Below are positions 9,380 to 24,555 of a stretch of DNA of 64,000 nucleotides, one piece after another (position 1 is the first letter of the stretch; each line of letters begins with the position of its first letter). The notes below the pieces were generated by a model. It worked only from the letters and a program-made list of their open reading frames with translations, was not told where the DNA came from and ran no database searches. This DNA comes from an uncultured Gammaproteobacteria bacterium. GTDB lineage: Bacteria; Patescibacteriota; Patescibacteriia; UBA1558; UBA10009. The position numbers and the translations under genes are program-made. The stretch is from positions 10,031-74,030 of the forward strand of contig CAZPMS010000003.1 in assembly GCA_964588165.1 (NCBI GenBank), written 5' to 3'.

Positions 9380-10429
9380 TTAGTAATCGCGAAAGTATTC
9401 AGAACTAGGCTCATCATTTACCACCGATGTAATCAGGTCGCCAAAATAACCCGAGGCGTCTACCACAATAAATTTCTCTGGACCGAAATCCAAAAACTCT
9501 TGTGGAATCGGATTGGAATTGGTAGTAACAAACGCCGTCAACCAACCCTTATTAAAAGCCTCTTTTAAATTATCATACGTCTTACCGGGGGCCGGATCAA
9601 AATGAGGCGCAAAGGCATAAATGCCTTTATTGGTCTGCTGGCGAAGGCTTTTGCAGCCGCCCTTGAGAGTGCCCAGAGTAAGCGCCATGTCATCAAATAA
9701 TCCAATATTTTGGCCTACAACTTCACCAAAAAACTGCTGCCTGGAAAGTGAATTTTCAACCCGGTGATCATGCTCTTTGGCCGCTAAAACGATCGGCGTT
9801 TTAAGGCCTAAAAGGGTGCTAACCTTAATTGCCCTCGGGCTTGAGCCCCAATCAGTTGCCGAAACTTGGTCAATACCCATTTCCTTTGCTTTTTCAATCA
9901 GCAAGCTTAGCAAGTAAAATCGTCGCCGGTAGCATGGTGAAAAAAATCCAAGATGCGATGATTGATGCAGGTCAAAACAGTAAATTGACTTTGGCCCCAA
10001 GTTTGCAATCTCCCTGGCAATACTTACAGCATTGGGATCATGGCCGTCTGAATGATCAATATCATCTTTAGTGCAAAACCAAGAAAGAATAATATAAATC
10101 TCTTCAGCATTCGCGCAAGAGCTGTATATCTGCTTCAGCTCTTCAAGCGGCGATCCAATGCCGGTATACTGCAAACTGGTAACAATAAAAACCTGTTTTC
10201 CTTTAAAAGTTACACCATCTGGTCTAACACATCTGGGATAGCCATTCCCCCAAGGCTCAGTGTCAAAAAATACCGGCTCAACACCAATGTATTCACCTAT
10301 GCCACTAACCAGGGAATGATTTGTCCTGCCTGAAACTATGGCAAAATTCTGATGATTTAGTGCTTTACCTTTACTGTTCACGAGTCCACCCTCCTTATGA
10401 CCGTTATTTTTATGTGCTTTGATATTCAT
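9380..10429 (-). CDS. prs: Ribose-phosphate pyrophosphokinase (PRPP synthetase) family protein
   Basis: N-terminal Prs domain pattern (FAIVSGRTNHSLVSGIGEYIGV...DGV...GKQVFIVTSL). A DLHQ...GFF motif. A PRPP-binding loop, LFDDMALTLGTL. Confidence 0.65.
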   Translation of the reverse strand: MNIKAHKNNGHKEGGLVNSKGKALNHQNFAIVSGRTNHSLVSGIGEYIGVEPVFFDTEPWGNGYPRCVRPDGVTFKGKQVFIVTSLQYTGIGSPLEELKQIYSSCANAEEIYIILSWFCTKDDIDHSDGHDPNAVSIAREIANLGPKSIYCFDLHQSSHLGFFSPCYRRRFYLLSLLIEKAKEMGIDQVSATDWGSSPRAIKVSTLLGLKTPIVLAAKEHDHRVENSLSRQQFFGEVVGQNIGLFDDMALTLGTLKGGCKSLRQQTNKGIYAFAPHFDPAPGKTYDNLKEAFNKGWLTAFVTTNSNPIPQEFLDFGPEKFIVVDASGYFGDLITSVVNDEPSSEYFRDY

Positions 10430-10514: not shown

Positions 10515-13280
10515 ATGGGTTTTTTAGACAAATTATTTGGAGACGGTAATGAAAAATACCTAAAAACCCTCCAACCTACAATAGATAAAATTAATTCACT
10601 CGAAAAGGATTTCGAGAGTTTTTCTAATGATGAATTAAAGTCAAAAACTAATGACTTAAAATTAATGGTTAAGGATGGGAAAAAATTAGATGATATTTTA
10701 CCGGAAGCTTTTGCTTTAACCAAAGAAGCTGCCAAGCGGACTTTAAACATGAAGCACTATGATGTCCAACTTTTAGGAGGCATTGTGTTGCACCAAGGCC
10801 AGATTGCCGAAATGAAAACCGGTGAAGGTAAAACTATAACTGCCACTCTGCCGATATTCTTAAATGCTTTAGCCGGCAAAGGCGCCCATTTAATTACGGT
10901 AAATGATTATTTAGCCAGAAGAGACTCCGTTTGGATGGGGCAAATTTATAATATGCTGGGATTAACCATAGGTTGTATCCAGCATGACAGTGCTTTTATT
11001 TATGATGTTAATTATAAAGCTACAGAAGAAGTTGAAGAAGAAAGAGATAGGGGAATAGTGGTTAATGAAAACTATTTAAGGCCGGTGAGCAGGAAAGAAG
11101 CCTACGAGGCAGATATTACTTATGGCACCAATAATGAATTTGGCTTTGATTATTTGCGCGATAATATGGTCCAATCTTTAGAACAAAAAGTCCAACGGGA
11201 TTTGAATTATTGTATTGTAGATGAAGTGGACTCAATTTTAATTGATGAAGCCAGAACTCCGCTTATTATTTCTGCTCCGGATATGGAATCAACCGATAAA
11301 TACTTCCAATTTGCCAAACTGGTAAAAACTTTAAAGGAAAATGAAGATTACAATATTGATGAGAAAATGAAAGCGGCTACATTAACTGATAAAGGTATTG
11401 AAAATATTGAAAAAGCCTTAGGCGTAGATAATATCTACCAATCCAAAGGCATTCAAACGGTTCATCATTTAGAATCAGCCCTAAGGGCCGAAACTTTATT
11501 CAAAAAAGATAAGGATTACGTGGTAAAAGAAGGTGAAGTTATTATTGTTGATGAATTTACCGGCCGCATGATGTACGGCCGAAGATATTCCGAGGGCCTC
11601 CACCAAGCAATTGAGGCCAAAGAAGGTGTTAAGGTCCAACGTGAATCCAGGACTATGGCCACTATTACTTTCCAAAATTATTTTAGGCTTTATGAAAAAT
11701 TGGCCGGCATGACAGGTACGGCCGCCACCGAATCGGAAGAATTTTCTAAAATTTATAACCTGGAAGTAACAGTAGTACCTACTAATAAGCCAAATATCAG
11801 GAAAGATTTGAATGATTTAATTTACAAAAATGAAATAGCCAAATATAAGGCTGTTATTGAAGAAATTAAAAAAAGAAAGGCAGCTGGCCAGCCGGTTTTG
11901 GTTGGTACTATTTCCATTGAAAAAAATGAACTCCTGGCACAGCTTTTAGAGCAAGGCGGTGTTGAATATAATGCTTTAAATGCAAAAAACCACGCTAAAG
12001 AAGCGGAAATTATCGCCCAGGCCGGTAAAAAAGGTTCTGTTACCCTGGCCACTAACATGGCCGGCAGGGGAGTTGATATTATATTAGGCGGCAACCCAAC
12101 TGACGATAAAGAAGCAGAAGATATTAAAGCTTTGGGCGGTTTGCACGTGATTGGTACAGAAAGGCATGAATCCAGAAGAATTGATAACCAGTTAAGAGGT
12201 AGGTCCGGCAGGCAAGGGGATCCGGGATCAACCCAGTTTTTTGTCTGCATGGATGATGATTTAATGAGAATTTTCGGTTCCGATAGGATGAAAAACATTA
12301 TGACCACTCTAAAAGTTCCGGAAGATATGCCCATTGAAAATAAATTAATTACTAAATCTTTAGAATCAGCCCAAAAAAAAGTGGAAGGCAATAATTTTGA
12401 TATTAGGAAACATCTGGTTGAATATGATGATGTTATCAGCAAGCAACGGGAGGTAATTTATAAAAAAAGAAATCAAGTCTTAAAGCTTTCAGCCGGAGAA
12501 CAAACTGATGAATATAAATCTACCAAGGAAATGGTTTTGGAAATGCTAGCCGAAGAAATTACAAATCTGGTAAATTTCCATGCTGTTTCTGAAAATAATT
12601 CCGGCATTAACTATAAAGAGATTACAGAAACTATTGGCGCTATGTTCCCGCTGGATGATGAGATAAAAGAAAAAATTAACCAAGAAAAAACTCAGGAAAG
12701 TTTAACTGACTATTTAGTTAACTTAACTAAAGATAAATACCAACAGGTAGAAACAGATGTGGCTGGCATGCAGGAACTCCAAGGTGAAGCTGATCCTTTA
12801 AGAAACGTGGAAAAATCTTTAATCCTAAATACCATTGATACTTTTTGGGTGGAACATTTAGAAAATATTGACCATTTAAGAACCGGTATTGGCTTAAGAG
12901 GTTATGGCCAGCGTGATCCTTTAATTGAATTTAAAAAAGAATCATACCAACTGTTCCAATCATTGCTTTCGGCCGTCCAAAACCAGGTTATTTCTACTAT
13001 TTTTAAAATTGGCAAAGCAGCCCAAGTTACTCTTTCACCAATTGCTACTGCCAATATGAAATTCAGCGGTGCCGCTAAAACTGCTATTGATAATAGAAGC
13101 AGCATCCAGAGAATGGCCCAAAATACCAACCAGCCTCAAAAACCAGCTCCTGCTAAAAAACTTGAATCAAAACCTAAAGATGAATCTGGCAAAAAAGTTG
13201 GCCGGAATGATCCATGCCCCTGTGGAGCGGTTAAATCGAACGGCACTCCAAAAAAGTATAAGCATTGCCATGGAAAGTAG
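10515..13280 (+). CDS. secA: Preprotein translocase ATPase SecA
   Basis: 921 aa with DEAD-like motor motifs (MKTGEGKT, DEVDSILIDEARTPLIIS) and a C-terminal zinc finger CPCG...KYKHCHGK. The last 18 codons appear to be element-derived (see findings). Confidence 0.95.
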   Translation: MGFLDKLFGDGNEKYLKTLQPTIDKINSLEKDFESFSNDELKSKTNDLKLMVKDGKKLDDILPEAFALTKEAAKRTLNMKHYDVQLLGGIVLHQGQIAEMKTGEGKTITATLPIFLNALAGKGAHLITVNDYLARRDSVWMGQIYNMLGLTIGCIQHDSAFIYDVNYKATEEVEEERDRGIVVNENYLRPVSRKEAYEADITYGTNNEFGFDYLRDNMVQSLEQKVQRDLNYCIVDEVDSILIDEARTPLIISAPDMESTDKYFQFAKLVKTLKENEDYNIDEKMKAATLTDKGIENIEKALGVDNIYQSKGIQTVHHLESALRAETLFKKDKDYVVKEGEVIIVDEFTGRMMYGRRYSEGLHQAIEAKEGVKVQRESRTMATITFQNYFRLYEKLAGMTGTAATESEEFSKIYNLEVTVVPTNKPNIRKDLNDLIYKNEIAKYKAVIEEIKKRKAAGQPVLVGTISIEKNELLAQLLEQGGVEYNALNAKNHAKEAEIIAQAGKKGSVTLATNMAGRGVDIILGGNPTDDKEAEDIKALGGLHVIGTERHESRRIDNQLRGRSGRQGDPGSTQFFVCMDDDLMRIFGSDRMKNIMTTLKVPEDMPIENKLITKSLESAQKKVEGNNFDIRKHLVEYDDVISKQREVIYKKRNQVLKLSAGEQTDEYKSTKEMVLEMLAEEITNLVNFHAVSENNSGINYKEITETIGAMFPLDDEIKEKINQEKTQESLTDYLVNLTKDKYQQVETDVAGMQELQGEADPLRNVEKSLILNTIDTFWVEHLENIDHLRTGIGLRGYGQRDPLIEFKKESYQLFQSLLSAVQNQVISTIFKIGKAAQVTLSPIATANMKFSGAAKTAIDNRSSIQRMAQNTNQPQKPAPAKKLESKPKDESGKKVGRNDPCPCGAVKSNGTPKKYKHCHGK

Positions 13281-13442
13281 TCTCTACATTATAATTACTT
13301 AGTATTAGCTAAGTTTAAATTAAGTTCATATATAACACGGTGTATACGAAAAAACAGCTCACTTCTTGAGCTATTTTCTGCAAATTTGACTTATTTTTCT
13401 ATTATCAGTATTATATAAATATACTAATATATTTATATTACT

Positions 13443-13661
13443 ATGCGTAAAATAGATTTAAAAAATGTAATCTGGAAAGAAGGCAAATATTACGTGGCAC
13501 AATGTCTTAATGTTGATGTGTCTAGTTTTGGTAAAACAAAAAAAGAAGCTCTAGCTAATTTAGATGAGGCATTAGAGTTATATTTTGAAGATGTACAAAT
13601 ATCCAAGGTTACCAAAGTAGAAAGACCAGAGGTGGTAAGGCTATCCCTACGCTATGCCTAA
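13443..13661 (+). CDS. hicB: HicB-family antitoxin (UPF0150-like)
   Basis: 72 aa with the pattern KEGKYYVAQC...GKTKKEALANLDEALELYFE, typical of HicB N-domains. Overlaps the downstream hicA by 8 nt. Confidence 0.7.
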   Translation: MRKIDLKNVIWKEGKYYVAQCLNVDVSSFGKTKKEALANLDEALELYFEDVQISKVTKVERPEVVRLSLRYA

Positions 13662-13872
13662 ACTTTATTCATCTAGTAAAATTATCAAAGTCCTATTATC
13701 TAAGGGCTTTATTTTTATATCCCAAAAAGGCTCTCATGCCAAATATCGCAAATTCAATAGACTAGTTTTAACGGTTATTGTGCCTATTGGTAAAAAAGAA
13801 ATTCCAATAGGAACTTTTAAATCTATTTTACGCCAAGCAAATTTAATAGAAGAAGATTTCAAGAAAAAATAA
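13654..13872 (+). CDS. hicA: HicA-family mRNA interferase toxin
   Basis: 72 aa with KIIKVLLSKGF...QKGSHAKY...IPIGTFKSILRQANL, the HicA/YcfA consensus. Confidence 0.75.
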   Translation: MPKLYSSSKIIKVLLSKGFIFISQKGSHAKYRKFNRLVLTVIVPIGKKEIPIGTFKSILRQANLIEEDFKKK

Positions 13873-13926
13873 GTCAAAATTCGCATCCGCACACAAGTTA
13901 TATGAAATAATTAAATTTTTAGAACA

Positions 13927-14190
13927 AAAAAACACCTAGGCCAATAATGACAGCCTAGGTGCTACGAATAAGCTTACCTTGCAGCTCTGAGCTGGGTGCG
14001 ATACAGTCTCCAGCTAGTATTGTTACTTCTCCCAGTTGGCCTGCTTCTTCTAAAGAAAAAAGGAAGAAAGCTTAAGGTAGTTATTTGATACCAGCCTGGG
14101 CACATCATGTTCGCGTAAGACAGCAGAGGTCAGAAGGTGCTAGCTAGCATTTTGCTTATCCGGTTTTGATCCCTTTGTATAAAAAAACTT
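13927..14190 (-). ncRNA. Putative sRNA of about 264 nt, GC-rich relative to the host, convergent with hicBA
   Basis: On the - strand, TTGACA (complement of 14222-14227), a 17-bp spacer, then TATATT (complement of 14199-14204). It ends at an intrinsic terminator: hairpin cacctaggc/gcctaggtg at 13934-13962 followed by a U-run (plus-strand A-run 13927-13933). There is no convincing ORF (best is 47 aa without an RBS). Confidence 0.4.
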
Positions 14191-14374
14191 AAATACTAAT
14201 ATATAATATATTTAATATTTTGTCAATAGTAAGTAATAGCTCAATCAAAACAAAATTAAAAAAATTAAATAAGAAAAACCGCCGAGTTGTGTAACTAGGC
14301 GGTTTTGTGATACCTCAACACTCATCATTTTTTTCTTCTTAGAGAATCTATTCTAACTGCACTACCGAATCTCT

Positions 14375-14452
14375 CGGAATGATCCATGCCCATGCGGAGC
14401 GATTAAAGATGATGGAACTCCAAAAAAATACAAACATTGTCACGGAAAATAA
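14375..14452 (+). pseudogene. Displaced 3'-terminal fragment of secA (zinc-finger tail [25 protein letters not shown]), an attR-like remnant
   Basis: 17 nt identical to secA 13203-13219 (cggaatgatccatgccc), then synonymous-diverged codons for the same C-terminal peptide, ending in TAA. There is an in-frame stop immediately upstream, so it is not a complete gene. Confidence 0.65.
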
Positions 14453-14631
14453 TTCTTTTTTAAAAAAATCCTGTATCCACCATAATAAAGTGATGAAAAC
14501 AGGATTTAATGATTGTAATTATAGCCAAGTGCCTGAAGGACTAACTGGTCCTTAGGTTGGCTTGTAGCCAGCGATCCAAAAGCCGGAATCCCAATAGTAA
14601 CCGAAGATAATTCTCGCTCTGGGCTTACCGC

Positions 14632-15003
14632 TTAAATTATCGAATCGCGCGTTACACCAGTACCCATCTCTATTCTTCCAGTGGGTCCCGTTGGGGAATT
14701 CCTCGGCGAAAATCGGTTTTGTTCATTAAGCGTAGCTAGTGTAAAAGGATCAACAACACGCAGGCCACGTTCTTCACAATAAATGTCAACTTCTTCGTCA
14801 GTGGTCATACCAGATTTTAGTTCGAACAAGAAAACATCGATTTCCCCGCCACTACCCCTCGGCATTTGTTCAATCAACCTATGGCCAATAATCTCTCGGC
14901 CAGTACCCTCTAGCACATTCAATGAAGTACGGCTACAATCCACACTGACACGACAGACTATCATGTCGCCATGGTCGCTCTGGATAAATTTAAAAGACAT
15001 GGT
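14632..15003 (-). CDS. Hypothetical protein (island cassette gene 1); probable start MSFKF at 15003
   Basis: RBS agaaaggataatacc before the ATG at 15003. The first 17 residues of the tracked ORF are read-through of the shared repeat. GC-rich. A terminator hairpin and U-run lie downstream at 14465-14510, so the gene may be frameshifted or longer. Confidence 0.45.
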   Translation of the reverse strand, partial: TMSFKFIQSDHGDMIVCRVSVDCSRTSLNVLEGTGREIIGHRLIEQMPRGSGGEIDVFLFELKSGMTTDEEVDIYCEERGLRVVDPFTLATLNEQNRFSPRNSPTGPTGRIEMGTGVTRDSII

Positions 15004-15021
15004 ATTATCCTTTCTTGTTGT

Positions 15022-15140
15022 TGAATGAATTGTACGAATAATAAAGCACTGCATCAGATTCCAGCTATATTGTCAATAATCTATATAAAATAAAAAACCA
15101 CCTTAAGCTATGTCGAAAGGCGGTTTTGTAATAACCAAAA
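15022..15140. repeat. Direct repeat copy 1: promoter, 5' UTR and terminator module of the island cassettes
   Basis: About 119 bp, near-identical to 16161-16280. Contains an upstream terminator (aaaaaaccacc...ggcggtttt) and a leftward TTGACA promoter. Confidence 0.8.
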
Positions 15141-15148
15141 TTAGCTAT

Positions 15149-15400
15149 TTAAGTAAACAATAAGATGCCGGCGATTAGTATGCCAATGATTGGGATGCCA
15201 AATAGAATTATGCGTGTACGAAGTTTTTGCCTGGCTATCAATACGCTTCTACCTGCCTTACCTTGCCTCTGGCACTTATAGCATACACCGTCTTTATGAT
15301 GGATTGTATACCATCTTTCGCCACAATGGATGCAATCTTCCATCTCATCCCTTGATCCTTCAGCCAGTTCGGCCATTAAGTCACCTGTATGGTCGCCCAT
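15149..15400 (-). CDS. Small zinc-ribbon protein with a C-terminal TM helix (island cassette gene)
   Basis: CIHCG...CYKCQ double CxxC plus a hydrophobic tail. - strand promoter TTGACA-17-TATTAT (complement of about 15445-15473). Confidence 0.5.
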   Translation of the reverse strand: MGDHTGDLMAELAEGSRDEMEDCIHCGERWYTIHHKDGVCYKCQRQGKAGRSVLIARQKLRTRIILFGIPIIGILIAGILLFT

Positions 15401-15622
15401 AATCTACCTATGTTTGTTGGATTTAAAAAAACGTTAACATCGAATAATAACATAAACAAATAAACTTGTCAATAATCTATTTAAAATTAATTCATTGGAA
15501 AGCTTAAATAATTACGATAACGATTTAAGAATATATAAAATCCCTTAAAAAATTTATCATAAATAAAAGCGTAAATCATGTAGACTTACGCTTGTAATTC
15601 AGAAACTTTCTAAATTTTCTAC

Positions 15623-16126
15623 TCATTGATCCTGATAAAAGCCGATCCAAAATACACCGCCTAGTACAAAAAATAATACGTACAAAACTAGGAAAAGCCA
15701 TTGGTACGGAAAAATAACAATTTTGGTTGGCTTAATAACATGAGAGCTTTCATCAACTAAGACTTCTCGAATCTTCATTAAAGCAATGCCTTGTTCTGAT
15801 TGCGTTACAGTTAATGAATCAATTTTAAAACGTCTTATGATTGTTGATGTGGTTTGTTTGGCTCCCTGAATTTGTGAATACCAAATAGCAACATCATTAC
15901 TAGGTCGAAAGAAGGCAAAAGCAGAGTGACCACTAGTCAAGCCTCTCTCTTCGATTTTCAGAAGAGCATTGTTAAGAAACTCATCAGCGCGCTCTATGCT
16001 CGGAGCCTCAGCTGCTAACTTAAGCCAATCGCCGATATCACGATCAAAGGTGTAGTCAAGAATGCAGTGGTAAACACTAAGGCCCAGAAAGAAAAGAGTA
16101 AAAGCTATGGCAATAAACTGTTTCAT
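15623..16126 (-). CDS. Hypothetical membrane protein (island cassette gene 2); start MKQF at 16126
   Basis: N-terminal and C-terminal TM segments. The upstream residues of the tracked ORF are encoded by the repeat (GTG start). Uses the shared promoter/UTR module. Confidence 0.5.
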   Translation of the reverse strand: MKQFIAIAFTLFFLGLSVYHCILDYTFDRDIGDWLKLAAEAPSIERADEFLNNALLKIEERGLTSGHSAFAFFRPSNDVAIWYSQIQGAKQTTSTIIRRFKIDSLTVTQSEQGIALMKIREVLVDESSHVIKPTKIVIFPYQWLFLVLYVLFFVLGGVFWIGFYQDQ

Positions 16127-16160
16127 CTCTAAATCCTTTCGCCCTATTAAGAGCTTTTCT

Positions 16161-16280
16161 TTGAATGAATTGTACGAATAATAAAGCACTGTATCAGATT
16201 CCAGCTATATTGTCAATAATCTATATAAAATAAAAAACCACCTTAAGCTATGTCGAAAGGCGGTTTTGTAATACCTCAAT
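16161..16280. repeat. Direct repeat copy 2 of the promoter/UTR/terminator module
   Basis: Near-identical to 15022-15140 (1-2 mismatches). A third, partial and diverged copy lies at 16583-16650. Confidence 0.8.
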
Positions 16281-16304
16281 TCATTGCTTTCTCTTATTGG
16301 TGAT

Positions 16305-16577
16305 TTAATTAGAATCTATTCTAACTGCAACACCGAATTTCTCGGAGTGATGCATAATTAGATCACCAACTGCTTTATATGGAACCTTGCCAGCTGCCCA
16401 AATTCCAGGCTTTCCCTCAATGCATGCATGATAGTCAGCTGTTCTTTTTGTGACAACGATAACTATGGTCTTTTCTTTGGGCCGCCCGCTAAGGTATATG
16501 AAGAAAAAAAGTACCCAAGCCAACAAAGCGCCAACCCCGCCAACAATAATGTAGGTTACCAGGTCTTCCATGACCAT
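16305..16577 (-). CDS. Small membrane protein (island cassette gene 3); start MVMEDL at 16577 with a ggag RBS
   Basis: One TM helix. The C-terminal codons are supplied by the element-end/att-like repeat (16311-16355). Confidence 0.4.
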   Translation of the reverse strand: MVMEDLVTYIIVGGVGALLAWVLFFFIYLSGRPKEKTIVIVVTKRTADYHACIEGKPGIWAAGKVPYKAVGDLIMHHSEKFGVAVRIDSN

Positions 16578-16726
16578 CTCCGAAGTTGAATGAATTGTGC
16601 GAATAATAAAGCACAATATCATATTCTAGTCATATTGTCAATAGTAGTACAAAAAAACATTAAACAAAACACCCATACAAAAGCTTGCATTTTTTTAGTA
16701 ATTACTCTAAAATAGTACGCAAGATT

Positions 16727-18427
16727 ATGGCAAATAAAGTAAAAGTAGTTACCAGAAGAAAAATCTGGCTAAGTTTCTTAGCCGTTTTAGTTTTGGCCTT
16801 ATTTTGCGGCTTTGTTGTTTATCCTAACTTACCCCAATCATTCCCGGGTAAGTCTTTTTTTAGCGGATTTTATCCACATTTGGGCTTAGATTTACAAGGC
16901 GGAACCCATTTGGTTTACCAAGCTGATGTTTCTACCATAGAATCCGGTGATCAAGATTCAGCCTTAGAAGGCGTAAGGGATGTTATAGAAAGGCGGGTAA
17001 ATGCTTTTGGAGTTTCTGAACCTTTGGTCCAGACCAAATCCGGCAACCGCTTAATAGTAGAACTGGCCGGTGTCCATGATGTAAATGAAGCTATCAAGCA
17101 AATAGGTGAAACACCCTTGTTGGAATTCAAAGAATTGGATGAAACCATGCCGGAACCTTTAACTGATGAGGAAAAAGCCGAGGCTATTGAATATAATAAA
17201 GGTGTTCTGGATAAAGCTAATGAATTAATATCCAGAATTAATTTAGGTGAAGATTTTGCCACCTTAGCCACTGAATTTTCCGAAGATCCTGGAAACAAAG
17301 ATAACGGAGGTGATTTAGGCTTTGCCAAAAGGACAACTTATGTAGAAGAGTTTGATAAAGCAATTTTTGAAGATTTACGCATAGGCCAAACCACCAGCCA
17401 GCCGGTTAAAACCCAGTTTGGCTATCATATAATTAAAAAGGAAGAAGAAAGGGGAGAGGCTGAAAATTTAGAAGTTAGGGCCAGGCATATTTTACTCACC
17501 ACTAAAAATGAGTTTACCAAAGAAGCTCCTCCGGCTGATTGGAAAAATACCCAGCTTTCCGGAAAAAACCTGCAAAAAGCCCAAGTGGAATTTGATCCAA
17601 ATACCGGCCAGCCAAATGTTGCTTTAGATTTTGATAGTGAGGGACAAAACCTGTTTGCCGAGTTAACCAAAAGAAACCTGCAAAAGCCAATCGCCATATT
17701 TTTGGACGGCAGTGCCATTTCTGTGCCAACAGTACAAGAAGAAATTTCACAAGGCAGGGCTATAATCTCCGGCAATTTTAATATAAATGAAGCCAAGCTT
17801 TTAGTGCAAAGGCTTAACGCCGGTGCCTTGCCGGTTCCTATAGATCTTATCAGCCAGCAAACTGTCGGGCCAACTTTAGGCAAAATTTCTTTACAAAAAA
17901 GTTTAATGGCCGGTTTAATCGGCCTGATTGCCGTTATCTTTTTTATGCTTTTCTATTACCGCTTATTGGGTTTGTTTGCTGTTTTAGCTTTACTAATCTA
18001 CGGCTTAGTTACTTTGGCCATATTTGAGGCGTGGCCCGTAACTTTAACCCTTTCGGGAATTGCCGGTTTTATTCTTTCCATAGGTATGGCTGTTGATGCC
18101 AATGTTTTAATATTTGAAAGAACCAAGGAAGAATTAAAAAACGGCAAACCGCTGGGAACTTCTATAGAAGAAGGGTTTGCCAGGGCTTGGCCTTCTATAA
18201 GGGATTCTAATATTTCCAGCATAATAACCTGTTTAATTTTATTCTGGTTTGGTTCCAGCATTATAAAAGGATTTGCCATAACGCTGGGCGTTGGTATTAT
18301 TATTTCCATGTTTTCCGCCATTACCGTAACCAGGACATTCTTGAGGTTAACCTCTGGCAATTTCTTCTCCAAACACCTTGCTTTATTTGGCATTAAAACA
18401 AAACCAACAGATAAATTTCCTACCTAA
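16727..18427 (+). CDS. secD: Protein-export membrane protein SecD with an embedded parvulin/PpiC-type PPIase-like domain in the periplasmic head
   Basis: SecD TM1, P1 head and C-terminal 6-TM bundle. Residues roughly 150-260 carry GGDLGF..FDKAIF...TQFGYHIIK and ARHILL, the parvulin rotamase signature. The Met at 16727 is preferred over 16685. Confidence 0.85.
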   Translation: MANKVKVVTRRKIWLSFLAVLVLALFCGFVVYPNLPQSFPGKSFFSGFYPHLGLDLQGGTHLVYQADVSTIESGDQDSALEGVRDVIERRVNAFGVSEPLVQTKSGNRLIVELAGVHDVNEAIKQIGETPLLEFKELDETMPEPLTDEEKAEAIEYNKGVLDKANELISRINLGEDFATLATEFSEDPGNKDNGGDLGFAKRTTYVEEFDKAIFEDLRIGQTTSQPVKTQFGYHIIKKEEERGEAENLEVRARHILLTTKNEFTKEAPPADWKNTQLSGKNLQKAQVEFDPNTGQPNVALDFDSEGQNLFAELTKRNLQKPIAIFLDGSAISVPTVQEEISQGRAIISGNFNINEAKLLVQRLNAGALPVPIDLISQQTVGPTLGKISLQKSLMAGLIGLIAVIFFMLFYYRLLGLFAVLALLIYGLVTLAIFEAWPVTLTLSGIAGFILSIGMAVDANVLIFERTKEELKNGKPLGTSIEEGFARAWPSIRDSNISSIITCLILFWFGSSIIKGFAITLGVGIIISMFSAITVTRTFLRLTSGNFFSKHLALFGIKTKPTDKFPT

Positions 18428-18433
18428 CCTCCT

Positions 18434-19501
18434 ATGTTCAAAATAATTCAAAAAAGAAAAATTTGGTTCTCATTCTCCGGTCTTTTAGTATTATTAAGTA
18501 TTTTAGCTTTAATTTTTTGGGGACTTAATTTAGGCATAGATTTTACCGGTGGTAGCCTTTTAGAACTTAAGTTTAATGCCAATAGGCCGGATAACTCCCA
18601 AATTCAAGAAGCTGTTGCCGGTTTAGAATTGCCCAATATTTATATCCAGCCGATTGACGATGACGGAATTTTAGTTAGAACTGTTTCTTTATCCGAAGAA
18701 CAACATCAAGATATTTTAAAAGCAATAGATAAAATCGGTTCTGACGAAACAACCGCTACAGAAGATAATTTACACCCAGAGGCTAAAAATTTGAGTGCTG
18801 AAAATTTCGGCATCACAGGCGAAGGACTGGAAAATCTTAAAATAGAAACTATTGGGTCCGGCGGTGAAATGATTGATTTTAATTTAATAGATGATCAGCC
18901 AACAGCTGGTAATTTTAATAGCTTCGAAGAGCTTAGATTTGATTCTATCGGGCCAATTATCGGCCAAGAGCTTAAACAAAAAGCTATCTACGCCATTATT
19001 ATTGTTTTAATTGCGATTATTTTATACATAGCTTATGCATTTAGAAAAGTTTCCCATCCTGTTGAATCTTGGAAATTCGGCTTATCCGCTATTGTTGCCT
19101 TGGCCCATGATATTATCATAATCACCGGCATCTTTGCGGTTTTAGGCCACTTTTTAAATATCCAGTTAGATTCTTATTTTGTTACCGCCCTTTTAACGGT
19201 TTTAGGTTTTTCGGTCCATGATACCATTGTAACTTTTGATAGGACCAGAGAAAATTTGCGCAGGCACCAAGATAAAACTTTTGAAGATGTAGTTAACTTA
19301 AGCGTTAATGAAACAATCGTCCGTTCCCTCAATACTTCCTTAACAACTATATTTGTTTTGCTGGCCATTATTTTATTTGGCGGTGAAACTATTAAATATT
19401 TTGTTTTAGCTTTAATGATGGGTGCCATAGTTGGAACTTACTCATCAATCTTCCTGGCAAGTCCGCTATTAATGATTTGGTATAAAATAAAAAAATATTA
19501 A
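18434..19501 (+). CDS. secF: Protein-export membrane protein SecF
   Basis: SecF TM topology and conserved C-terminal bundle. Directly follows secD. Confidence 0.9.
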   Translation: MFKIIQKRKIWFSFSGLLVLLSILALIFWGLNLGIDFTGGSLLELKFNANRPDNSQIQEAVAGLELPNIYIQPIDDDGILVRTVSLSEEQHQDILKAIDKIGSDETTATEDNLHPEAKNLSAENFGITGEGLENLKIETIGSGGEMIDFNLIDDQPTAGNFNSFEELRFDSIGPIIGQELKQKAIYAIIIVLIAIILYIAYAFRKVSHPVESWKFGLSAIVALAHDIIIITGIFAVLGHFLNIQLDSYFVTALLTVLGFSVHDTIVTFDRTRENLRRHQDKTFEDVVNLSVNETIVRSLNTSLTTIFVLLAIILFGGETIKYFVLALMMGAIVGTYSSIFLASPLLMIWYKIKKY

Positions 19502-20281: not shown

Positions 20282-21367
20282 ATGGAAGAATCAATTTTAG
20301 ACAAAGTAATAGATAGCCAAAAATCAGCTGTGGTAATGGATTTCAACCCACAGCAAATTTTAAATTCCTTATTTAAACCATTAAACCAAAGGGAGGTTGA
20401 TGTTTTAACTTTAAGGCATGGCCTGGAAGACAATAAAAAAAAGACTTTAGAAGAAATAGGCAACAAATTTAATGTTACTAGAGAAAGAATCAGGCAAATA
20501 GAAAATACCGCCTTAAAAAAAGTTAGAAATAACGAAAACTTAGATGAACTTCTTAGGCCTGTTGAAGTAATTATAAACCAAACCCTAGAGGAGCATGGAG
20601 GAATTATGCAAGAAGATTCTTTAGTTAAAAAAGTTCTCTTGATTCCGGGTGAAAGCAAAGCGAGCTTCTCCTCCACCAAATTTATCCTTTCCCAACTTTT
20701 AAGCGAAAAATTACACTTTATTTGTACTGATGATAATCTTCATAATTGCTGGAAATTGCCAACTACTTCCATAGAAGAAATACAATCTATTATAAATAAA
20801 CTTATTGGCCAAATTGAAAAAGAAAATCAGCCTTTAGCAACCCAAAACATTATCCAACATTTGGAAGAAGATATGGAGGAGCATGTAGCTGAATCACTTT
20901 TAGAAATTAGCAAAAATGTTTCTACCAATCCTTTTAACGAATGGGGGATGGTTAACTGGAATTCCATTTCTTTAAAAAGAATGAGCGATAAAATTTTCTT
21001 AATTCTAAAAAAAGAAGCCAAGCCGCTTCATTTTACCGATATCGCAAAAAAGATTAACCAAGCCGGCTTTGACCATAAAAAAGCCAACCCTGCTACAATC
21101 CATAACGAACTTATTTTGGATAAAAAATATATTTTAATTGGCAGGGGAATTTATGCTCTAGAAGAATGGGGTTACAAACCAGGCGTTGTTGCCGAAGTAA
21201 TTTCGGAAGTTTTAAAAGAAGCCGGCATTCCTCTTTCTAGGGAAGAAATTATAGAAAAGGTTTTAGAAAAAAGAATGGTAAAAAGAAGTACCATTATTTT
21301 GGCGCTTATGAACAAAGATAAGTTTGCAAAAAATGAATCTGGTGAATATTTAATTGCTTCAAATTAA
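20282..21367 (+). CDS. Sigma-70 region-4-type HTH domain protein with a roughly 270-aa C-terminal region of unknown function
   Basis: N-terminal LTLRHGL...KTLEEIGNKFNVTRERIRQIENTALKKVR, the sigma region 4.2 consensus. A TTGACG-17-TATATT promoter lies at about 20199-20227. Confidence 0.55.
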   Translation: MEESILDKVIDSQKSAVVMDFNPQQILNSLFKPLNQREVDVLTLRHGLEDNKKKTLEEIGNKFNVTRERIRQIENTALKKVRNNENLDELLRPVEVIINQTLEEHGGIMQEDSLVKKVLLIPGESKASFSSTKFILSQLLSEKLHFICTDDNLHNCWKLPTTSIEEIQSIINKLIGQIEKENQPLATQNIIQHLEEDMEEHVAESLLEISKNVSTNPFNEWGMVNWNSISLKRMSDKIFLILKKEAKPLHFTDIAKKINQAGFDHKKANPATIHNELILDKKYILIGRGIYALEEWGYKPGVVAEVISEVLKEAGIPLSREEIIEKVLEKRMVKRSTIILALMNKDKFAKNESGEYLIASN

Positions 21368-21412
21368 ACTTTAAATTTTTATTGGCTATATTTGGCCTAA
21401 ACAAAAACAAAA

Positions 21413-22951
21413 ATGGATATTACTATCGATTTAAGCAGATTTTTTGAACTGATTAATGAAGAGCCAGCTAGCCTTTTATGGTTTTTATTTACCCATGGCG
21501 GTTGGCTTGTTTTAATTATCGTAATTTTATCAATCTTCCTTTATCTTCGTTTATATAACCAGCAAAAAAAATATCTAGAGTCTGTAGAACAAACAATCTT
21601 GGCCATAGATATCCCTAAAGATAATGAACAAAGTTTAGTGGCAGCAGAACAAATATTCGCCAGCCTAGCCGGTATAAAACGCAGCGGCACTTTGGTTGAT
21701 AAATACTGGCACGGCAAAACACAGCTTTCTTTTAGTTTGGAAATTATTTCCCTGGAAGGCTATATTCAATTCTTAATCAGAACCCCTGTCCGATTTAAAG
21801 ATTTGGTAGAAGCTGCTATTTATGCCCAATATCCGGAAGCCGAAATTACCGAAGTAGAGGACTATGTTAAATCTATCCCGGATGATGTACATGAATTGGA
21901 TTCAGATTATAAACTTTGGGGTACAGAATTTAGATTGGATAAATTCAGCGCCTATCCTATAAAAACCTACCGAAGTTTTGAACATCCTTTAACTCAAACT
22001 TTTATAGACCCAATGGCTTCTATGCTGGAAGTAATGAGCAAGCTTGGCCCCGGTGAACAACTGGGCCTCCAGTTTGTAATTGCACCGGTAAATAATAAAT
22101 GGAAAGAAAGAGGCTACCAGCTTATAAAAAAATTAATTGGTGAAAAAGTTGATGCTAACAAAAATTTAGGAGATAAATTAGTAGAGTCTTCTGTAGAAGG
22201 TTTGGGAAAATTCAGCGAATCAATTTATAAAATTTGGGGCGATATTGAAGAAAAAAGAGATGATGATTCTGCGCATCCTAATTTATACCAATATTTAACT
22301 CAAAATCAAAAATTTGTGGTAGAAGCCATAGAAAACAAGCTCTCCAAAATTTCTTTTGCTACAACCTTTAGGGTTTATTATTTAGCCAACACTCAGCGCT
22401 ACCAAAGAGGCAAAGGTGTTAACCCAATAATTGGAGCCATTAACCAATTTAATTCATCCGATTTAAACTCATTCAAAAAAAATAAGAGGTTCACAACCGA
22501 TGCCCACTATTTTTTTGTGGATAAAAGAATTTCTAGAGTTCAAAAAAAACTGTTAAAATTATATAAGAAAAGATCCAGGAAAGGAACTTATGAATTTTAT
22601 TTAGGCACCGAAGAGCTGGCTACCTTATATCATTTCCCTATTATAACTGTTAAAGCTCCTTTACTAAAAAGAACGGAATCTAAAAAAGCAGAAGCTCCAA
22701 CTGCATTGCCTTTGGAGCAGCAAAGAGCCAGCGAGCTTTTTAACCCGCCCACTGAAGATATTTTACCCGCAGATGATGAAGAAAAGTTAGGGGAGCCGGA
22801 CCATAAAATTACCGAATCTTTGCCAGGCTATGATTTTGATAATGACTATTTTGAAGAAAAATTTAAAAAAGACGATTCTACAATAAAAACTCCCAGCCAG
22901 GAATTATCAAAAAAGGAGGACCCTCCCTCAAATTTACCAATTAGCCACTAA
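21413..22951 (+). CDS. Hypothetical membrane-anchored protein (N-terminal TM, large soluble domain, acidic C-terminal tail)
   Basis: 512 aa with a single N-terminal TM (WLVLIIVILSIFLYL). Tightly coupled (8-nt gap) to the downstream ATPase. Confidence 0.5.
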   Translation: MDITIDLSRFFELINEEPASLLWFLFTHGGWLVLIIVILSIFLYLRLYNQQKKYLESVEQTILAIDIPKDNEQSLVAAEQIFASLAGIKRSGTLVDKYWHGKTQLSFSLEIISLEGYIQFLIRTPVRFKDLVEAAIYAQYPEAEITEVEDYVKSIPDDVHELDSDYKLWGTEFRLDKFSAYPIKTYRSFEHPLTQTFIDPMASMLEVMSKLGPGEQLGLQFVIAPVNNKWKERGYQLIKKLIGEKVDANKNLGDKLVESSVEGLGKFSESIYKIWGDIEEKRDDDSAHPNLYQYLTQNQKFVVEAIENKLSKISFATTFRVYYLANTQRYQRGKGVNPIIGAINQFNSSDLNSFKKNKRFTTDAHYFFVDKRISRVQKKLLKLYKKRSRKGTYEFYLGTEELATLYHFPIITVKAPLLKRTESKKAEAPTALPLEQQRASELFNPPTEDILPADDEEKLGEPDHKITESLPGYDFDNDYFEEKFKKDDSTIKTPSQELSKKEDPPSNLPISH

Positions 22952-22959
22952 TTAAAATA

Positions 22960-24555
22960 ATGAAAAATGAAATAACAACTTTTGCCAAAACTAACTTCCG
23001 CAATCAGGAAACGAAATTTGGGATAAAAACCGACGACAGGCGTCGGCATATGTATTTGTTAGGCAAAACAGGCATGGGTAAATCAGTTACCTTGGAGAAT
23101 ATGATTATCCAAGATATTAAAAACGGCAAAGGCGTAGCTGTAGTAGATCCCCATGGAGAGCTGGCAGAAAAGGTTATAAAATTTATTCCCAAAGATAGGA
23201 TAAATGATGTTGTTTATATTAACCCGGCGGACTTGGATTTTCCGGTTGCTTTTAATGTTTTAGAACAAGTGGCGCCGGAGCACCGGCATTTGGTTGCCTC
23301 TGGCTTGCTCGGGGTATTTAAGAAAATTTGGGCAGATTCTTGGGGACCTAGATTAGAATATGTTTTAAATAATGCCATTATGGCCCTTTTGGAATACCCA
23401 GGAAGTACGCTTTTAGGAATTATGCGGATGTTAACTGATAAAGTTTTTAGGAAAAAAGTGGTTAACAAAATCAGCGATCCTGTGGTTAAAGCCTTTTGGG
23501 TGGATGAATATTCAAAATATCCAGATAGGTTCCAAGCCGAAGCAATAGCCCCTATCCAAAATAAAGTTGGCAGATTTTTATCCTCTTCTATGATGAGAAA
23601 TATCGTTGGCCAAGTAAAATCTTCTATTGATTTAAGAAAGGTAATGGACGAAAAGAAAATCTTGCTTTTAAACCTTTCTAAAGGCAGAATTGGTGAAGAT
23701 AACTCCGCTCTTTTAGGAGCGATGATTATTACCAAAATTCAGCTGGCAGCCATGAGTAGGGTAGAGATGTCTGAAGATAAACGGGAAGACTTCTACCTTT
23801 ACGTTGATGAATTCCAAAATTTTTCAACCGAAAGTTTCGCTAATATTTTATCTGAAGCAAGAAAATATAGGTTGAATATTATAATGGCGCACCAATATAT
23901 TGAACAGCTAAAAGATGAAACCAGAGCAGCTGTATTTGGCAATGTTGGCACTATTATCTCATTTAGGATTGGGGCAGAAGATGCAGAATTTTTAGCTAAA
24001 GAATTTAACCCCAGATTTGATGAAATTGATCTGGTTAACTTAAGCAAATACCATATTTATTTAAAGCTGATGATAGATGGAGTTTCATCTGAACCTTTTT
24101 CTGCAACTACTTTGCCGCCTGCTACAGAACCGGAAGAATGGGAAGAAAATTTAAAAAAAATAGTTGATGTTTCCAGGGAGAGATATTCTACCAAAAGGCC
24201 TGTTATAGAAGAAAAAATTTCCCGTTGGGCAAACTTGGAAACTGATTCTACCGATGATTCTCCCGATAAAGGCACCAGTAAAAATTACCGTGGCAGCAAT
24301 CCAAGATCAAATAATGATCAAGATCAGCCCAGGGTAGTGGCTACTTGCGATAATTGTGGCAATAAAACCATTTTAAATTTTGAACCTGATTTAAATAAGC
24401 CCATCTACTGCAAGGACTGCTTAAAGAAAAAATATAAAACTCCGGCCAAAAAAGAAGGCCTTGGTGAAAAAACCCAAAAACAAGAATCTATTTCACTTAA
24501 AAATGCTATGGACCAAAAGGTCCAGGATTTTAAAGGCGGCAGGAATAAAAATTAG
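22960..24555 (+). CDS. VirD4/TraG/TrwB-like type IV coupling-protein-family ATPase, soluble, with a C-terminal zinc ribbon
   Basis: Walker A LGKTGMGKS. VDPHGE and DVVYINPAD...FNVLEQ blocks. A DEFQNF...EARKYRLNIIMAHQYIEQL C-terminal AAD-like block. C-terminal CDNCGN...CKDC. No TM segment. Confidence 0.55.
   Translation: MKNEITTFAKTNFRNQETKFGIKTDDRRRHMYLLGKTGMGKSVTLENMIIQDIKNGKGVAVVDPHGELAEKVIKFIPKDRINDVVYINPADLDFPVAFNVLEQVAPEHRHLVASGLLGVFKKIWADSWGPRLEYVLNNAIMALLEYPGSTLLGIMRMLTDKVFRKKVVNKISDPVVKAFWVDEYSKYPDRFQAEAIAPIQNKVGRFLSSSMMRNIVGQVKSSIDLRKVMDEKKILLLNLSKGRIGEDNSALLGAMIITKIQLAAMSRVEMSEDKREDFYLYVDEFQNFSTESFANILSEARKYRLNIIMAHQYIEQLKDETRAAVFGNVGTIISFRIGAEDAEFLAKEFNPRFDEIDLVNLSKYHIYLKLMIDGVSSEPFSATTLPPATEPEEWEENLKKIVDVSRERYSTKRPVIEEKISRWANLETDSTDDSPDKGTSKNYRGSNPRSNNDQDQPRVVATCDNCGNKTILNFEPDLNKPIYCKDCLKKKYKTPAKKEGLGEKTQKQESISLKNAMDQKVQDFKGGRNKN

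Follow-up and report, generated by a model that had tools for sequence, protein, structure and literature searches.

What is a prolyl-isomerase fold doing inside a subunit of the protein-export machinery? The question is raised by the secD gene on a 64 kb stretch of contig CAZPMS010000003.1 (assembly GCA_964588165.1, forward strand, positions 10,031 to 74,030), which comes from an uncultured, ultra-small bacterium placed by GTDB in the Patescibacteriota; this whole stretch of 64,000 nucleotides (nt) is called the window below. Coordinates are positions within the window, and amino acid (aa) numbering is that of the 566-aa SecD. Between the base and the head of its periplasmic P1 domain this SecD has an insertion of ~120 aa belonging to the parvulin family of peptidyl-prolyl isomerases (PPIases). 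We think it probable that the insertion is a circularly permuted, catalytically competent-looking parvulin that serves as a tethered foldase or holdase at the translocon, and this is the best explanation overall. The architecture is real and widespread, is built from two well-known families and is apparently undescribed: a full-text literature search, with most subscription journals outside its coverage, found no description of a SecD–parvulin fusion or of a circularly permuted parvulin, in line with the impression of an earlier sequence-only reading of this DNA. Such proteins are annotated just as "SecD", though precomputed Pfam matches already list their rotamase domains.

The host protein scores 413.9 bits against the TIGR01129 hidden Markov model of SecD (cut-off 244.4) over aa 52–539. 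Its reading frame is unbroken across 16727–18427, and the gene calls of public contigs use the same ATG. Pfam domains follow in the order Sec_GG (aa 51–67), SecD_1st (aa 82–138), Rotamase, SecDF_P1_head (PF22599, aa 273–370, E=1.4e-30) and SecD_SecF_C (PF02355, aa 373–540). Together with the helices and strands of the AlphaFold2 (AF2) model, they give the SecD architecture of a first transmembrane helix (TM1), the P1 domain with its base and head, and five C-terminal TM helices; where the sequence-only reading had placed a six-helix bundle after P1, TM2–TM6 follow instead. The top Foldseek matches are SecDF structures of Thermus thermophilus and Deinococcus radiodurans, with E=1e-25 to 1e-23 for the T. 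thermophilus entries 5yhf and 3aqp. In the 3aqp alignment D457 falls on T. thermophilus D340, reportedly the conserved proton-path Asp in TM4, and it is invariant in 60 of 60 sequences (alignment A1). The protein thus resembles canonical SecDF (T. thermophilus 3AQP/5YHF; D. radiodurans 5XAN) in TM1, the P1 base and head, TM2–6, the proton-path Asp and the adjoining secF. It differs from these comparators in that SecD and SecF are separate genes here, and from T. thermophilus SecDF in having the ~120-aa parvulin between base strand and head, where the latter has ~30 unrelated residues.

The parvulin identity of the insertion comes from sequence profiles and from structure. PF13616 (Rotamase_3) matches aa 161–240 with E=2.7e-21 (76.7 bits against a gathering cut-off of 22.5) and PF00639 (Rotamase) matches aa 158–239 with E=2.5e-19 (70.5 bits against a gathering threshold of 21.7). 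These matches bear out the proposal, first made from the letters of the sequence, of a parvulin/PpiC module in the P1 region; the motifs named then are all in SecD (FGYHIIK at aa 231–237, EVRARHILL at aa 249–257), and the catalytic-type residues are intact. The best PDB sequence matches of the insert are SurA (E=3.6e-18) and PrsA (E=1e-16 to 1e-13), with PpiC and Pin1 also found. A Foldseek search of the PDB with the insert model aligned 77 columns to the PrsA parvulin 6xd8 at a root mean square deviation (rmsd) of 1.1 Å, and matched SurA parvulins too.

Alignment to homologues delimits the inserted block as aa 139–262 (17141–17512 of the window). On its N-terminal side stands the base strand LLEFKEL, and on its C-terminal side a variable connector followed by the first head strand, W-K-N-T-x-L-S-G-K. 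Two relatives, P0107 and P0113 (446 aa), are without exactly the block between LLEFKE and W-x-N-T-x-L-S-G-K; in P0107, PF21760 runs up to aa 140 and PF22599 from aa 151 onwards. Taking the limits of base and head as the Pfam subdomain boundaries, sequence comparison places the parvulin in the P1 base-to-head connector, between the two Pfam P1 subdomains and outside the head. The span 17130–17560 (aa 135–278) given by the sequence-only reading does bracket the insert, but its location within the P1 head has to be corrected to the connector. The parts of the gene are as follows.

16727..18427, + strand: secD coding sequence (566 aa plus stop), assigned by TIGR01129 and the Pfam layout and matching the public gene calls.
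16727..17140, + strand: TM1, GG motif and N-terminal P1 base (aa 1–138), with the Sec_GG and SecD_1st matches; the last strand is LLEFKEL.
17141..17242, + strand: beginning of the insert, with a short linker and then a long helix (aa 139–172; helix 147–172), from AF2 secondary structure and the block absent from P0107 and P0113.
17243..17452, + strand: parvulin core, helix 2 to beta4 (aa 173–242), with D187 (17285–17287) and H234 (17426–17428), from PF13616, PF00639, PDB matches and Foldseek.
17453..17470, + strand: six-residue turn from beta4 to the relocated beta1 (aa 243–248), from AF2 secondary structure.
17471..17500, + strand: relocated beta1, EVRARHILLT (aa 249–258), with H254 (17486–17488), from motif order, reordering, the SurA and PrsA alignments and AF2.
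17501..17539, + strand: flexible connector into the first head strand (aa 259–271), from low local model confidence and low conservation.
17540..17842, + strand: P1 head and return strand (aa 272–372), PF22599, aligning with T. thermophilus SecDF residues 151–252.
17843..18427, + strand: TM2–TM6, SecD_SecF_C, including D457, from PF02355 and the 3aqp alignment.

The first part, aa 1–138, aligns with T. thermophilus SecDF residues 34–120, and AF2 gives it a helix at 10–31 and a strand at 131–138. The parvulin has no export signal or anchor of its own, being internal to SecD with the P1 base and head on its flanks. Nor does it have a PrsA/SurA-type frame of N- and C-terminal chaperone domains: a Pfam scan of SecD found no SurA_N, SurA_N_3 or comparable domain, and NCBIfam PrsA/SurA models matched the parvulin segment only, far under their cut-offs (PRK03095, 59.7 against 361).

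In canonical parvulins beta1 and beta4 are adjacent antiparallel strands, each with one active-site His, and the chain termini are adjacent. We strongly infer that the SecD parvulin is circularly permuted, running from helix 1 to beta4 (GYHIIKK), through a short hairpin, to beta1 (EVRARHILL), and we infer the exact placement of the strand at aa 249–258 in the fold. The canonical order with beta1 first (beta-alpha3-beta-alpha-beta2) is absent: the native sequence matches PF00639 only from profile position 16 to 96 of 97, and the AF2 models have no strand ahead of helix 1. With aa 244–259 placed at the front, PF00639 matches over its full length (profile 1–96 of 97) and scores 79.8 bits; the native order scores 73.6 and a control with the strand reversed 74.4. 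For PF13616 the corresponding scores are 89.1, 80.6 and 78.2 bits. The beta1-like motif E-V-x-x-x-H-I-L comes after G-Y-H-I-I-K in ~115 of 118 insert-bearing homologues. By PDB sequence match the insert is collinear with residues 178–278 of Escherichia coli SurA, that is, with P1 minus its beta1, the linker and the beta1 of P2. A doubled PrsA parvulin sequence aligns to SecD aa 164–261 from the core of copy 1 into the beta1 of copy 2, which is a classical signature of permutation. RARHILL, which had been taken for a further hallmark following the domain, is on this evidence the domain's own beta1 in a shifted position.

The structural models agree. AF2 modelled the insert by itself with a predicted local distance difference test score (pLDDT) of 94.6 and a predicted template modelling score (pTM) of 0.86, and in that model strands 94–104 and 111–120 (aa 232–242 and 249–258) form a hairpin at pLDDT 97–98. 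The full-length AF2 model has the same secondary structure, and its lowest pLDDT in the P1 region, 63, is at aa 261–270. The helix at aa 147–172 corresponds in the models to parvulin helix 1, lengthened at its N terminus. Foldseek alignments support a parvulin fold; they keep chain order, so that they cannot prove the permutation. A longer match, over 108 columns at rmsd 1.6 Å to the PPIase 8hm4 from Bacteroides, is ambiguous, as this protein is a SurA-like one with ordinary tandem parvulins. Since both the strands and the termini are adjacent, it would be geometrically simple to link beta4 to beta1 by a hairpin and to open the loop between beta1 and helix 1.

Conservation was assessed in the 118 insert-bearing clusters among the 120 best homologue clusters. 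D187, H234 and I255 are found in all 118 and H254 in 117, and the proline pocket is hydrophobic throughout (L197; F, L, M or Y at 205; F or Y at 209). We take the Pin1 equivalents to be H59 for H254, C113 for D187, H157 for H234, L122 for L197, M130 for Y205 and F134 for F209. Mean identity is 59% in the parvulin core, 68% in the head and 72% in the TM domain; within the folded insert conservation is lowest at its start (aa 139–172, 32%), and the connector that follows the insert falls to 20%. The pattern points to purifying selection on the insert, with its focus at the catalytic site. In the connector, low identity goes together with low pLDDT, as a flexible tether would show. In one single-unit homologue only, P0038, the relocated strand has lost its His (EVHVYDIYF) and the beta4 His is retained; the parvulin of that lineage may be turning non-catalytic.

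A survey of SecD in related lineages found the insert to be widespread in Patescibacteria, with the same insert in 118 of the 120 best homologue clusters and the SecD–parvulin architecture in hundreds of homologous clusters. All named sources of the single-unit homologues are Patescibacteria (Komeilibacteria, Parcubacteria, "Patescibacteria group"), and the full junction segment occurs in GTDB species genomes of Komeilibacteria, Buchananbacteria, Falkowbacteria, Parcubacteria and unclassified Patescibacteria metagenome-assembled genomes (MAGs). Across much of the Patescibacteria, SecD–parvulin is the usual state; only by comparison with model organisms does it stand out. In a search of a representative library with the junction segment, most matches were to multi-parvulin proteins from other phyla, in which the scores of the repeats sum; the search gives no clean count of the SecD type, but it brought to light the long-loop and two-unit forms described below. 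A 10 kb scaffold of a MAG labelled Lysobacteraceae (JAACEG010000012.1) has the junction segment at full length and 58% identity; it is probably a mis-binned Patescibacteria contig.

The two insert-free proteins, P0107 and P0113, fall inside the insert-bearing clade, beside P0021, in a neighbour-joining tree built without the insert columns. Their locus has the same synteny, and no parvulin gene was found in its neighbourhood; this looks like a clean secondary loss of the insert. Other relatives, P0185 and P0230 among them, have a longer loop: in these SecD proteins and one fused SecDF (905 aa), beta4 and beta1 are parted by ~50 low-complexity residues, and the strand is kept.

A further family, of ~690 aa and at least 120 clusters (including Falkowbacteria and Parcubacteria, e.g. 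P0129), has two parvulin cores at this site. It shares with the window SecD the insertion site, the flanking motifs and a strand after the last core, and differs in the number of cores, the order being core A, beta1a, core B, beta1b, head. His is present in beta1a in 120 of 120 and in beta4 of core B in 120 of 120. In beta1b only 52 of 120 have His, a loosening that goes with the missing beta4 His of core A, the unit this strand would complete, and the hydrophobic residues are kept; a trailing strand retained after its catalytic His is lost is presumably kept for structural reasons. On the simplest reading, the sequences suggest that a canonical active parvulin (beta1a plus core B) is nested in the beta4–beta1 loop of a permuted, dead one (core A plus beta1b). 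Odd taxonomic labels (Bacteroidales, Actinobacteria) also occur among the two-unit matches.

What might such a domain do in this position? One close likeness is to PrsA of Bacillus subtilis and other monoderms. PrsA is a lipoprotein foldase at the membrane–wall interface. The parvulin core of SecD is close to that of PrsA, with TQYGYHIIKKTEER in PrsA and TQFGYHIIKKEEER here, and where Pin1 has C113 both have Asp. The task presumed for the two is alike as well: to fold proteins as they emerge from the Sec channel of a cell that has no outer membrane. Unlike PrsA, the insert has neither chaperone-type N- and C-terminal domains nor a lipobox, its membrane anchor is SecD itself, and its strand order is permuted. 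The second parvulin of E. coli SurA (P2) has a D-P-G-x-x-x-x-G-G-D-L-G loop of equal length (FSQDPGSANQGGDLGW in SurA P2). SurA differs in that it is soluble in the periplasm, carries a chaperone domain at its N terminus and has two parvulins, both in canonical order. SurA nevertheless binds the holo-translocon, and AlphaFold together with biochemistry puts its parvulin domains on the SecDF P1 head (PMC9987972). In the window SecD, unlike SurA, the contact with the head would be covalent and permanent, and the lineage concerned is believed to have no outer membrane.

Membrane-anchored parvulin proteins are also known at the Sec translocon or cross-linked to SecD: PpiD–YfgM of E. coli associates with SecYEG (PMC9643414), and the parvulin lipoprotein Mpn444 of Mycoplasma pneumoniae cross-links to SecD (bioRxiv 10.1101/2024.09.05.611430). 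Unlike the SecD insert, PpiD–YfgM and Mpn444/Mpn436 are independent polypeptides that have anchors and chaperone-like domains of their own, and their association is non-covalent. In the lineage studied here the association between parvulin and translocon would have been made covalent, and by analogy with these systems covalent tethering of a translocon-associated parvulin appears to be the most economical explanation. The sequence-only reading suggested that the module could make up for a missing separate PrsA/SurA-type chaperone in a minimal genome, which may be so. Within the window, no other parvulin is encoded, and a literature search for PrsA in Patescibacteria yielded nothing usable.

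The current view of the SecDF P1 head is that it binds the polypeptide as it emerges and pulls it by means of the proton gradient (review, PMC6028853). In the reading we prefer, that of a tethered foldase or holdase, unfolded chains exiting SecYEG would be captured by the P1 head, and the parvulin, at one copy per SecD subunit near the translocon exit, would act on the captured chains in the manner of PrsA or SurA P2, by prolyl isomerisation and transient binding. It would hang from the hinge connector by its long helix and flexible linker, and would probably move with or beside the head in the proton-driven swing. Prolyl-isomerase activity and coupling to translocation are putative, and are suggested by the conserved residues and by the position of the domain. 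A bolder form of the proposal, which we offer tentatively as a possibility, is that there is a mechanical coupling between the parvulin and the swinging P1 head in a pull-and-fold machine powered by the proton motive force, that the permutation was selected to bring both chain ends to the side suited to the hinge, and that the scaffold later took in a second, nested canonical parvulin.

Several observations weigh against an active tethered foldase. The full-length AF2 model has a pTM of only 0.56, and the placement of the parvulin relative to the head is uncertain in it. The insert is dispensable for SecD function, given its loss in one nested lineage. Some parvulins with reasonable motifs are enzymatically inactive, PpiD among them. 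In the two-unit family the beta4 His of core A is present in 0 of 120 (Glu in 85 of 120), so that non-catalytic roles are tolerated in a core without a catalytic His.

It is in this last direction that the main rival lies: the parvulin would be a non-catalytic holdase or chaperone surface, like PpiD or SurA P1, that widens the capture area of the P1 head and performs no isomerisation. The retention of core A despite its missing His speaks for such a role, as does the contact of SurA parvulins with the SecDF head, predicted as a chaperone contact. Yet in single-unit proteins both His residues, the Asp and the hydrophobic pocket are near-invariant, which is more than one would expect of a mere binding surface, and in the two-unit family one unit always has both His residues (120 of 120 each). 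On balance we regard a purely non-catalytic role as unlikely.

It is more doubtful still that the insert is a mechanical or docking element, which tunes the base–head hinge or anchors SecDF to another envelope component and does not act on substrates. The insert does lie in one of the two base–head connectors, at a site that in relatives also tolerates long low-complexity insertions. The conserved residues, however, are those of the parvulin active site and proline pocket and make up no novel surface patch, and with a poorly conserved 13-residue linker after the domain the connector is probably still flexible. A third explanation takes EVRARHILL to be the vestige of a deleted second parvulin repeat, which would leave the domain truncated and three-stranded. 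Its likeness to the P1–linker–P2 junction of SurA and the existence of two-unit relatives would fit such a history. We rejected it as highly improbable: H254 (117 of 118) and I255 (118 of 118) are conserved, the strand survives expansion of the linker, AF2 packs it at pLDDT 97–98, and a domain without it would be short of a central strand and of one catalytic His. An assembly or gene-calling artefact (a chimeric contig or fused open reading frame) can safely be set aside, since the identical SecD protein occurs on nine independent metagenome contigs from different samples and the architecture recurs in hundreds of clusters and in GTDB assemblies of several Patescibacteria lineages, in a continuous frame.

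The permuted parvulin of SecD stands in a Sec locus whose order, secA–secD–secF, is also found in relatives; here a variable island of 3.4 kb parts secA from secD. The two partner genes are:

10515..13280, + strand: secA (921 aa), with SecA_DEAD, SecA_PP_bind, P-loop_SecA and SecA_SW; upstream of secD in the same orientation.
18434..19501, + strand: secF (355 aa), the partner of SecD, with TIGR00966 at 280.8 bits (cut-off 160) and PF02355 at E=1.5e-57; 6 nt 3' of secD.

SecF is long relative to the 279 positions of TIGR00966, having ~70 extra acidic, low-complexity residues in the periplasmic P4 domain at roughly aa 95–165; the SecF of an insert-free relative is also long (344 aa). The conserved neighbours downstream of secF, at 20282–24555, code for a Sigma70_r4/HARE-HTH protein, a DUF8128 protein and a TraG/VirD4-like coupling ATPase that has a treble-clef zinc finger at its C terminus, and the same gene order is seen downstream in a relative without the SecD insert.

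The island (13281–16726) contains a HicB/HicA-like toxin–antitoxin pair (13443–13661 and 13654–13872) and several small minus-strand open reading frames (ORFs) without a Pfam match, and its gene content varies among otherwise identical public contigs. A 120-nt direct repeat, 97% identical, occurs at 15014–15133 and 16154–16273, with a partial third copy at 16585–16643 (86% over 59 nt). The copies lie at the upstream ends of three small minus-strand ORFs, two of which share a starting peptide (M-x-CFIIRTIHST) because of the repeat; the pattern resembles a promoter/terminator module that recurs with each small gene cassette. The 3' end of secA (13203–13279), encoding the zinc-binding tail RNDPCPCG...KKYKHCHGK, is copied at 14375–14451 with 81% identity, ~1.1 kb downstream and after the hicAB pair, with no obvious intact ORF around the copy, which may be a target-site remnant of the island's insertion.

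On how exported proteins pass from the Sec channel to folding factors, the arguments still come mostly from cross-links, low-resolution electron microscopy and AlphaFold models of transient complexes (SurA–SecDF, PpiD–SecYEG, Mpn444–SecD). A widespread natural fusion is independent evolutionary evidence that the functions of parvulin and of the SecD periplasmic domain belong together, and it gives structural and biochemical work a stable target of fixed stoichiometry. The apparently undescribed permutation of the parvulin, including the nested two-domain form, should be useful for work on protein evolution and for domain-annotation pipelines. If the pull-and-fold machine is real, capture, pulling and isomerisation would be combined in one polypeptide, and the fusion would be a "Rosetta-stone" sign that parvulins and the SecDF head cooperate in bacteria generally. 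For the Patescibacteria themselves, it points to the way in which the folding of proteins outside the cytoplasm is organised in cells whose genomes are very small.

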